Part shown: piece after piece, positions 15,541 through 15,990 of the stretch
How positions within the stretch are numbered: the first letter of the stretch is position 1
Layout: the number at the start of each line of letters is the position of its first letter
Notes under the pieces: generated by a model
What the model was told of the DNA's origin: nothing
Databases searched by the model: none
What the model saw: only the letters and a program-made list of their open reading frames with translations
Made by a program: the position numbers and the translations under genes
Virus genome (UHGV): UHGV-2134446
DNA: 41,941 nt
Strand: one strand, 5' to 3'
Origin: a virus

Positions 15541-15646
15541 GCGTATTACTTTTCCTATTCAGTAAATTACTATATGATGATTATTATGATGACGGAACAT
15601 AGTTCCACTTGCACGGCATATGAGAATATGCTGTGCTTTTTTTGTA

Positions 15647-15741
15647 AAAAAATAACCACTCCCGGGGAGGAGTGGCACAATTAGATGAAAAAGTTTTTTA
15701 TAAGGTAAGTTAATTATATTAGCTATTTCCAAATCGTTCAA
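15647..15741 (-). ncRNA. sRNA-like unit A (minus strand, about 60 nt): -35 TTGAAC, 17-bp spacer, -10 TATAAT, terminator ccactcc-cgggg-aggagtgg plus U-tract
   Basis: Plus-strand gttcaa 15736-15741, attata 15713-15718; hairpin 15657-15676 preceded by A-run 15646-15653 (T-run on minus). Confidence 0.4.
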
Positions 15742-15752
15742 ACCAATTGCTC

Positions 15753-15859
15753 AAAAATAACCCACCCTCAAGGAGAGTGGGCCTGAAAAAAGATATAAAA
15801 TGAAATAGCCCCGGTCAAGGCTATGACTCCATTCTACAAGAACATAGTTTTTATTTCAA
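15753..15859 (-). ncRNA. sRNA-like unit B (minus strand, about 72 nt): -35 TTGAAA, 17-bp spacer, -10 TAGAAT, internal hairpin atagcc/ggctat, terminator cccaccctc-aagg-agagtggg plus U-tract
   Basis: Plus-strand tttcaa 15854-15859, attcta 15831-15836; terminator hairpin 15761-15781 with A-run 15753-15758. Confidence 0.4.
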
Positions 15860-15860
15860 C

Positions 15861-15990
15861 AAAAAATCCACCCTATTCTGCCTAGAGTGGACCCAAAGAA
15901 GAGTAAACAAATGAAAAATTGGATTGGTTGGTATGAGTCTACATTACAACTTTTATTAATTAAACTCAACAAATTTATGACGATTTTCTA
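15861..15990 (-). ncRNA. sRNA-like unit C (minus strand): third copy of CCACyC...GAGTGG terminator; promoter weaker/unclear
   Basis: Hairpin tccaccctattctgcctagagtgga 15868-15892 with A-run 15861-15866; shares stem sequence with units A and B. Confidence 0.25.

Follow-up and report, generated by a model that had tools for sequence, protein, structure and literature searches.

The genome of a temperate Enterococcus phage (UHGV virus genome UHGV-2134446), analysed here as one stretch of 41,941 nucleotides (nt) that is referred to throughout as the window, carries on its minus strand, between 15640 and 15990, three tandem promoter-to-terminator units, A, B and C, which belong to an array of six such units reaching up to ~16400. 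The reading favoured here, to which we give about even chances, is that this region is a mobile, protein-free cassette of sibling small-RNA (sRNA) genes which the prophage expresses. The cassette probably gives rise to discrete small transcripts. The argument is carried by the anatomy of the array, by the fact that it is conserved as a block, by hairpins specific to one strand and by the lack of consistent coding capacity.

The three units between 15640 and 15990 are spaced at ~106 nt, and each consists of a sigma-70-type promoter followed, 60-75 nt on, by a GC-rich hairpin and a U-tract. A first-pass annotation, made from the letters alone, had described three tandem minus-strand promoter-hairpin units in this stretch, and these were recovered almost base for base, with the two promoters named there, those of A and B, exactly in place and the internal hairpin of unit B located at 15824-15805. 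The features are listed below; the transcript ends of all units, here and further on, were deduced from promoter and terminator positions, the start of the unit A RNA being a predicted one placed from the position of its -10 element.

15741-15713, minus strand: unit A promoter, TTGAAC-17-TATAAT, 10 of 12 consensus matches
15706-15646, minus strand: predicted unit A RNA, ~60 nt, with a variable 5' end, a kept A/U-rich body (15699-15677), terminator and U-run
15676-15655, minus strand: unit A terminator hairpin, GCCACTCCTCCCCGGGAGTGGT, then the U-run
15859-15831, minus strand: unit B promoter, TTGAAA-17-TAGAAT, 10 of 12 consensus matches, directly adjoining the U-run of unit C
15824-15752, minus strand: predicted unit B RNA, ~72 nt, with a 5' hairpin (15824-15805), a U-rich linker, a terminator (15783-15759) and a U-run
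15969-15941, minus strand: unit C's own, weaker promoter, TTGAGT-17-TAATGT, read from the sequence
15934-15860, minus strand: predicted unit C RNA, ~75 nt (or ~128 nt if started from the element P55, see below), with a hypervariable body and a terminator (15894-15864)

In a consensus-signal scan of 3 kb, the promoters of units A and B obtained the top minus-strand scores, and eight terminator-like sites were found against 1.5 +/- 1.6 in shuffled sequence, most of the minus-strand ones lying within the array. Both predicted promoters show what is expected of SigA/sigma-70 recognition, that is, near-consensus hexamers, 17-nt spacers and hexamers kept relative to the spacers, and all three units end in GC-rich stem-loops of 9-12 pairs (4-6 of them GC) with a U-tract, as intrinsic terminators do. 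The stems are variants of one another: the pattern CCACTC-N(3-12)-GRGTGG has six matches on both strands of the window, corresponding to four distinct hairpins where 0.02 are expected, and three of the four stand in the array, which bears out the common CCACyC/GAGTGG stem proposed earlier. In local alignments the similarity between B and C reaches upstream of the stem (2 of 500 shuffles as good), the one between A and B is restricted to the terminator (4 of 500) and the one between A and C is not significant against shuffles, which indicates that B and C share ancestry beyond the stem. The fourth hairpin of the window, at 40682-40696, is the perfect palindrome AGACCACTCATAGAGTGGTCT with a weak U-run; flanked by the minus-strand genes 40719-41300 and 40323-40661, it stands at the start of the late operon, a short way upstream of the HNH and terminase genes.

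The three units are only half of the array, which the first-pass annotation had taken to end with unit C. Past 15990 it continues on the same strand with three further units of hairpin and U-run, BH1, 'b' and BH2 (~16025-16400). A tandem duplication of ~265 nt is recognized here (copies 15973-16238 and 16240-16500, with segments 82-90% identical), each copy of which holds one BH unit, made of a promoter-like site, a 5' tail, a stem of ~15 bp and a U-run, and one copy of the element P55.

16030-15973, minus strand: P55, a 58-nt element with TTATCA-18-TATTAT at 16024-15995; second copy at 16240-16297
16141-16025, minus strand: unit BH1, with a promoter-like site (16141-16113), a 5' tail, a ~15-bp stem (16035-16084) and a U-run
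16291-16153, minus strand: unit 'b', with the second P55 copy (TTATCA-18-TATTAT, 16291-16262), a ~90-nt body and a terminator (16185-16161)
16396-16290, minus strand: unit BH2, the second long-hairpin copy, with a promoter-like site (16396-16368) and a hairpin (16301-16348)

Read along the minus strand, the order is BH2, b, BH1, C, B, A, six promoter-to-terminator units in ~900 nt with no credible open reading frame (ORF). The first copy of P55 runs into unit C and the second into unit 'b'; in relatives the element is followed by unit C, by unit 'b' or by a gene of 92 amino acids (aa). Its identity is 93-100% in most loci and 88-100% over all, more than a promoter requires, and a 5-bp inverted repeat, TCAAT-N12-ATTGA, spans the -10-like TATTAT and may be an operator. 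P55 would serve as promoter or as operator. Unit BH1 has a 27-nt core identical in 12 IMG/VR loci, and a second allele retains the pairing through G-U changes and the loss of a bulge. A third, degenerate copy of the 'b' terminator without U-run is found at ~16429-16451.

Relatives of the array were gathered by exact-motif scans of IMG/VR, the JGI metagenomes and the GTDB species representatives. The block BH-P55-C-B-A is present, in constant order, in ~40 viral, metagenomic and genomic loci (identified below by L numbers), so that a lack of conservation in related phages, which had been named beforehand as a way to refute the sRNA proposal, does not apply. Several of the block-bearing loci are human-gut contigs, and Enterococcus casseliflavus NBRC 100478 is the only GTDB species representative matched. 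A search of the deposited phage genomes of INPHARED in near and distant mode gave no match to 15540-16560, only a match of the flanking gene to one unannotated faecal phage record. Between loci, the 800-nt flanks align on average over just 7% (upstream) and 14% (downstream) of their length, versus a coverage of 88-100% for BH-P55, C and B; the unit A region is covered to 67% and is absent from some loci, and unit B is the best conserved segment, with 95% mean identity over its full length. Judged from these alignments, the block is a mosaic module common to otherwise unrelated backbones.

The borders of the module are also variable. In most relatives it starts right after the stop codon and terminator of the endolysin gene, and in some after a YfhO-type or a glycosyltransferase-like gene; a YfhO-family membrane protein is encoded upstream of the cassette in the E. 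casseliflavus locus (L049:4541-6703) and a glycosyltransferase family-2-like ORF, the resemblance being read from the sequence by eye, in another (L001:1396-2391). Such neighbours would fit cell-wall-modifying conversion genes, hence a moron setting. The far end is of two kinds, either a tRNA-Met gene or its remnant, considered further below, or a convergent terminator. The latter is the case in the window, where the terminator of unit A stands 18 nt from the plus-strand terminator (15611-15636) of the 94-aa gene 15256-15540, and the same junction occurs in four other loci (L016, L023, L049 and L052).

The constraint acting on units A and B was followed in an alignment of 22 distinct homologous sequences. 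In the unit A promoter the -35 hexamer stays TTGAA[ACT] and the -10 hexamer retains T1, A2, A5 and T6, with a spacer between them of 17 nt (18 in one locus) that is variable in all 17 columns; identity across loci rises from 69% in the spacer to 92% in the -10, 97% in the body and 99% in the terminator. Unit B has a -10 that is invariant in 22 of 22 sequences next to a spacer with 11 of 17 variable columns (L012, L020), and only one of 12 columns varies in 15865-15854, which comprise the U-run of unit C and the -35 of unit B. Kept unpaired stretches are present as well, these being the body of A, at the 97% just given, and the linker of B (15804-15784), at 95%. Unit C is different in that its body varies in 43 of 55 columns, with at least four alleles; its -35 reads TTGA[GA]T, or TTCAGT in two alleles, and its -10 passes through TAATGT, TATCGT, TATCAT, TAACGT and TAATCT with T1, A2 and T6 always retained. 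The loop of the C hairpin is variable at seven of seven columns and the stem at only ~3 of 18.

Over the 22 sequences, 99.3% of the stem cells of the four hairpins are paired, against 35-54% when the partners are slid. The divergent allele L012 retains both hairpins of unit B, with one compensatory change from C-G to U-A in the B terminator, and several one-sided changes from G-U to Watson-Crick pairs are seen in the stems. G-U pairs make up eight of the 37 stem pairs of the minus strand and would be A-C mismatches on the plus strand, and the minus strand folds better in all three units (-14.5 vs -12.9 kcal/mol for A, -25.2 vs -17.3 for B and -15.5 vs -10.9 for C), the minus-strand z-scores being -3.4 for A and -3.6 for B. 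The fixed stem of C around a free loop, together with the G-U pairs and the better folding of the minus strand, thus argues that the hairpins have been selected in minus-strand RNA. The comparison also supports the earlier view that the units are independently promoted and terminated, since hexamers, spacing and stems are kept, spacers and loops vary, and the G-U pairs are specific to the minus strand.

From this architecture a mechanism can be proposed. Each unit would be transcribed by a housekeeping-sigma promoter placed right after the U-tract of the preceding terminator and closed by its own intrinsic terminator, and in the lysogen would yield, if the promoters fire and the RNAs are stable enough to accumulate, one discrete non-coding RNA, ~60-130 nt long. 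As diverged paralogues, A, B and C would be sibling sRNAs. A regulatory action, if they have one, would most likely be exerted in trans: the U/C-rich segment that stays single-stranded, bounded by the terminator on one side and by the 5' end or 5' hairpin on the other, would base-pair with mRNAs of the host or of other phages, not of this phage. A bolder version, which we regard as a long shot, is that the six-unit block is an RNA-only lysogenic-conversion cassette, a set of portable sibling sRNAs exchanged as a unit by unrelated Enterococcus prophages and reprogramming host translation, or blocking superinfecting phages or host defences, through RNA alone; specificity would reside in the hypervariable body of unit C, which might be coupled to a new, antisense-controlled peptide of 26 aa.

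Several findings weigh against the sRNA reading. The duplex energies of the predicted RNAs with the 51 translation-start regions of the phage all fall in the shuffle range, and the longest exact complements, sought throughout the window and across 570 kb of related loci, lie within it too; complementarity being not above chance in either, the regulatory, antitoxin or decoy roles suggested in the first-pass annotation find no support. The best match common to A, B and C, the start region of the gene 32361-32756, was rejected as a specific target because what pairs there is generic, CUCC and UUUCAU with the strong site GGAGGAG...AUGAAA. Nor is UUUCAU, which all three units share, invariant: four of 22 sequences have it altered in A, and several alleles in C. 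As the homologues are closely related, with identities mostly of 90-100% inside the block, its conservation may come partly from recent spread and not from selection. Most stem pairs never vary, which leaves covariation thin, and the hairpins could be kept simply as terminators. Stems of the CCACTC..GRGTGG type are, besides, frequent in unrelated phages: a broad IMG/VR scan (TTTCAT...CCACTC..GRGTGG..TTT) returned mostly unrelated terminators, from phages of 25-60% G+C, hence the stem motif is generic and not diagnostic alone, and the scan pattern was too loose. Finally, in L001 and L008 the 3' part of unit A is the ordinary terminator of a real gene, the one of 92 aa.

The lack of targets, the mostly invariant stems and the use of the unit A terminator behind a gene also speak for a different explanation, namely that terminators with vestigial promoters are stacked up here, left where accessory-gene cassettes lost or swapped their genes (a graveyard, or a junction, of such cassettes), and that the array persists as an insulator of convergent and late transcription or as a recombination linker, its short RNAs being functionless. 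A common block with differing flanks is what a recombination linker would leave, in most relatives the block stands directly behind the endolysin terminator, and exchanges within the array are visible. In L020, ~1.8 kb are inserted between the B-type and the A-type unit, and in L005 (~6040-6240) and L006 (~1500-1700) unit A is replaced, after unit B, by a second copy of an endolysin 3' fragment (ending ...ALNNNKLPW*), together with its terminator, which is a recombination footprint inside the cassette. Relic promoters should decay, yet these have lost neither their hexamers nor the 17-nt spacing, although the spacer sequences change; the best conserved segment of all, unit B, is without a gene in every locus; and insulation needs one or two terminators, yet five or six are present, each re-armed by a promoter. 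Nor does the array stand downstream of the late operon in the window, as its neighbours show.

11514, plus strand: repressor
between repressor and integrase, plus strand: ImmA-type protease, then a lipoprotein-like gene
13314-14468, plus strand: tyrosine integrase
14795-15094, plus strand: DUF5960 gene
15256-15540, plus strand: 94-aa gene
15611-15636, plus strand: terminator of the 94-aa gene, convergent with the array
16558-17815, plus strand: three genes past the array (DUF6941 and two of unknown function)
17827-18612, minus strand: endolysin; the entire late operon is likewise on the minus strand

Because three genes of the opposite strand intervene between the endolysin and the array, the hairpins are here not explicable solely as terminators of read-through from the late operon, another refutation that had been anticipated. 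On balance we hold the terminator stack to be somewhat unlikely. Apart from its endolysin fragment in place of unit A, L006/L013 shares ~99% identity with the window rightwards of 15747. In L015, L030, L048 and L060 (e.g. L048:~7231), bidirectional terminators of the form AAAAATACCACTCC-loop-GGAGTGGTATTTTT stand between the endolysin terminator and BH, and their loops vary freely (GTAAT, GCAAT, TATTAC), so that in these phages a stem of the A type does further duty as a generic terminator.

The description of the cassette as protein-free rests on its coding capacity. The sole ORF of at least 60 aa in the stretch, on the minus strand at 15559-15741 (60 aa), crosses the hairpin of unit A, and its earlier dismissal as running through a terminator is borne out. 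This ORF and another minus-strand one of 38 aa were rejected as genes, as both run through terminators, have no ribosome-binding site and give no Pfam match; a plus-strand ORF of 24 aa across unit 'b' was rejected too, having stop codons in L004 and L007 and no Pfam match. Across the compared loci no consistently conserved ORF was found in the cassette. One small ORF deserves more attention.

15912-15992, plus strand: 26-aa ORF, MKNWIGWYESTLQLLLIKLNKFMTIF, antisense to unit C and contained in a 34-aa GTG-initiated ORF (15887-15991); its coding status is doubtful

The predicted unit C RNA (15934-15860) overlaps the start of this ORF at 15912 and the region upstream of it, an antisense relation in geometry only. 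Short RNAs with this relation to a small ORF are known from type I toxin-antitoxin loci such as par (Fst/RNA II) of the Enterococcus faecalis plasmid pAD1, Sib/Ibs and SR4/BsrG, in which tandem copies and frequent inactivation of the toxin are typical. The array could be read in the same way, as a cis-antisense module in which the 26-aa ORF encodes a small membrane-active peptide, repressed by unit C RNA lying over its ribosome-binding site and first codons, with A and B as copies that were orphaned or have decayed, their plus-strand ORFs now down to 7 and 2 codons. Likenesses go further than the geometry: as in type I loci, the short RNA has its own promoter and terminator and is antisense to the 5' end of the ORF, the units are tandemly repeated and the DNA is mobile. 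The overlap coincides exactly with the hypervariable stretch of unit C, and in such an overlap any change in the RNA is also a change in its cis target; among 25 distinct alleles the frame is open in all and the ORF intact in 15. In the intact alleles the variable sites are distributed 5/3/9 over the codon positions, with six synonymous and 11 nonsynonymous changes (6/17, vs 17% expected), a mild surplus at the third position and of synonymous changes, and a coding signal that is statistically marginal.

The same ORF lacks much of what would make a toxin gene. In the remaining 10 of the 25 alleles (40%) it is disrupted, the start being lost (ATG to ACG) or the frame shifted; its Shine-Dalgarno sequence is weak (GAAGAG); the consensus-signal scan found no plus-strand promoter-like site between 15541 and 16557, and read-in would be blocked by the terminator at 15611-15636. 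Type I toxins are hydrophobic, conserved and have their own promoter and ribosome-binding site, whereas the present peptide is Trp-rich and amphipathic, with ~10 polar or charged residues and no hydrophobic or transmembrane stretch, and neither a Pfam match at E-values up to 10 nor a match to a toxin family was obtained. Two of the three units face no ORF, and these two, A and B, are conserved better than C. An antisense toxin module is accordingly regarded as quite unlikely.

Concerning the relation of the proposed sRNA cassette to known systems, the covariance-model check recommended in the first-pass annotation was run with Rfam 15 and returned no family at the gathering score in the whole window; in 15400-16700, with E-values up to 10, it gave 11 weak matches of 11-22 bits, to be compared with thresholds of 39-100. 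By sequence or structure the cassette belongs to no described Rfam family, including LhrC, the csRNAs, the sRNAs of Enterococcus and Staphylococcus and the antitoxin RNAs of type I systems. A CRISPR repeat, the repeat of a type III antitoxin and a retron RNA were discarded on anatomy only, as repeats alternating with spacers, a toxin gene downstream and a gene for reverse transcriptase are all missing. On present evidence the cassette is not a categorically new system.

Its architecture is closest described by two kinds of precedent. Clusters of sibling sRNAs occur in Firmicutes, with LhrC1-4 of Listeria monocytogenes and the cia-dependent csRNAs of Streptococcus, both thought to pair with ribosome-binding regions. 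As in these families, putative short paralogous RNA genes follow each other head to tail, each with its own promoter and intrinsic terminator, and each has one or two hairpins and, between them, unpaired pyrimidine-rich sequence. Unlike them, the cassette is phage-borne and not part of a core genome, its promoters look constitutive and not dependent on a response regulator, and UCCC and anti-start-codon motifs are not consistently kept. The second precedent is given by sRNAs encoded in prophages, such as DicF, IpeX and the Spr RNAs of S. aureus; phage-borne small RNAs have been well studied in enterobacteria and hardly in enterococci. The Pas sRNAs of pathogenic E. coli are likewise encoded by prophages, in accessory regions (bioRxiv 10.64898/2026.05.13.724894), and the statement that the array is no typical phage feature was in this respect too strong. 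With prophage sRNAs like Pas the cassette shares small non-coding genes of temperate phages outside the core lytic and lysogenic modules, variable copy number, horizontal spread between prophages and paralogues of common ancestry. It differs from the Pas type in the phylum of the host, in the absence of homology, in that its transcripts and their action are predicted ones and in packing six units into ~900 nt that move as one block of fixed order.

If the units are expressed, at least 2-3 sRNA families would be new, namely the siblings A/B/C, the BH RNA with its long hairpin and the 'b' RNA, which travel jointly among the prophages of the motile casseliflavus group and occur in metagenomes of the human gut. 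They would then be a compact example of lysogenic conversion by RNA rather than protein, and would offer a clean set of promoter-terminator modules, shaped by nature, for use in Enterococcus. Without expression, the region would still be a useful marker of the recombination junction at the endolysin-att end of these phages.

As for its position in the genome, the array sits in the window in the classical accessory region of a temperate phage, the one of morons and lysogenic conversion, between integrase and endolysin. Morons are promoter-gene-terminator cassettes of temperate phages; the array resembles them in its place between the lysis genes and the att site or integrase, in its autonomous promoters and terminators and in its mosaic occurrence among unrelated backbones, and differs from them in that its cargo is RNA-sized and holds no conserved ORF. 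Among the genes neighbouring the array, PADLOC gave no meaningful match to a defence-system signature.

In several relatives the array borders on the attachment site. A complete tRNA-Met(CAT) gene follows on the same strand 0-5 nt past the last terminator (~13 nt in L008) in six loci, L008, L014, L017, L042, L057 and L064 (for instance L014:6953-7028 and L042:8451-8526), and degenerate, tRNA-like remnants stand at the corresponding place in L048, L009, L028 and L054. The tRNA gene or its remnant marks the att end of these prophages, and the tRNA-Met may there depend on phage-borne outward promoters and on read-through of terminators. This proximity would suit a role of the array in integration or tRNA expression, either as holder of the integrase arm sites or as a source of outward promoters driving the adjacent tRNA-Met. 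A terminator lies, however, between every promoter and the tRNA, and in the window no tRNA or tRNA fragment was detected, the array being followed by a convergent gene pair and lying ~1.2 kb and two genes away from the integrase. Arm sites of attP are repeated, integrase-specific and found within ~150 bp of the crossover core, which does not describe the array, and as the same block adjoins at least two tRNA-type att regions as well as non-tRNA contexts, it cannot hold integrase-specific arm sites. A role of this kind is considered highly improbable. Directly after the integrase gene of the window there is a 326-nt non-coding gap (14469-14794) with a terminator-like hairpin at 14673-14699, and this gap is likely the attP region of the phage.

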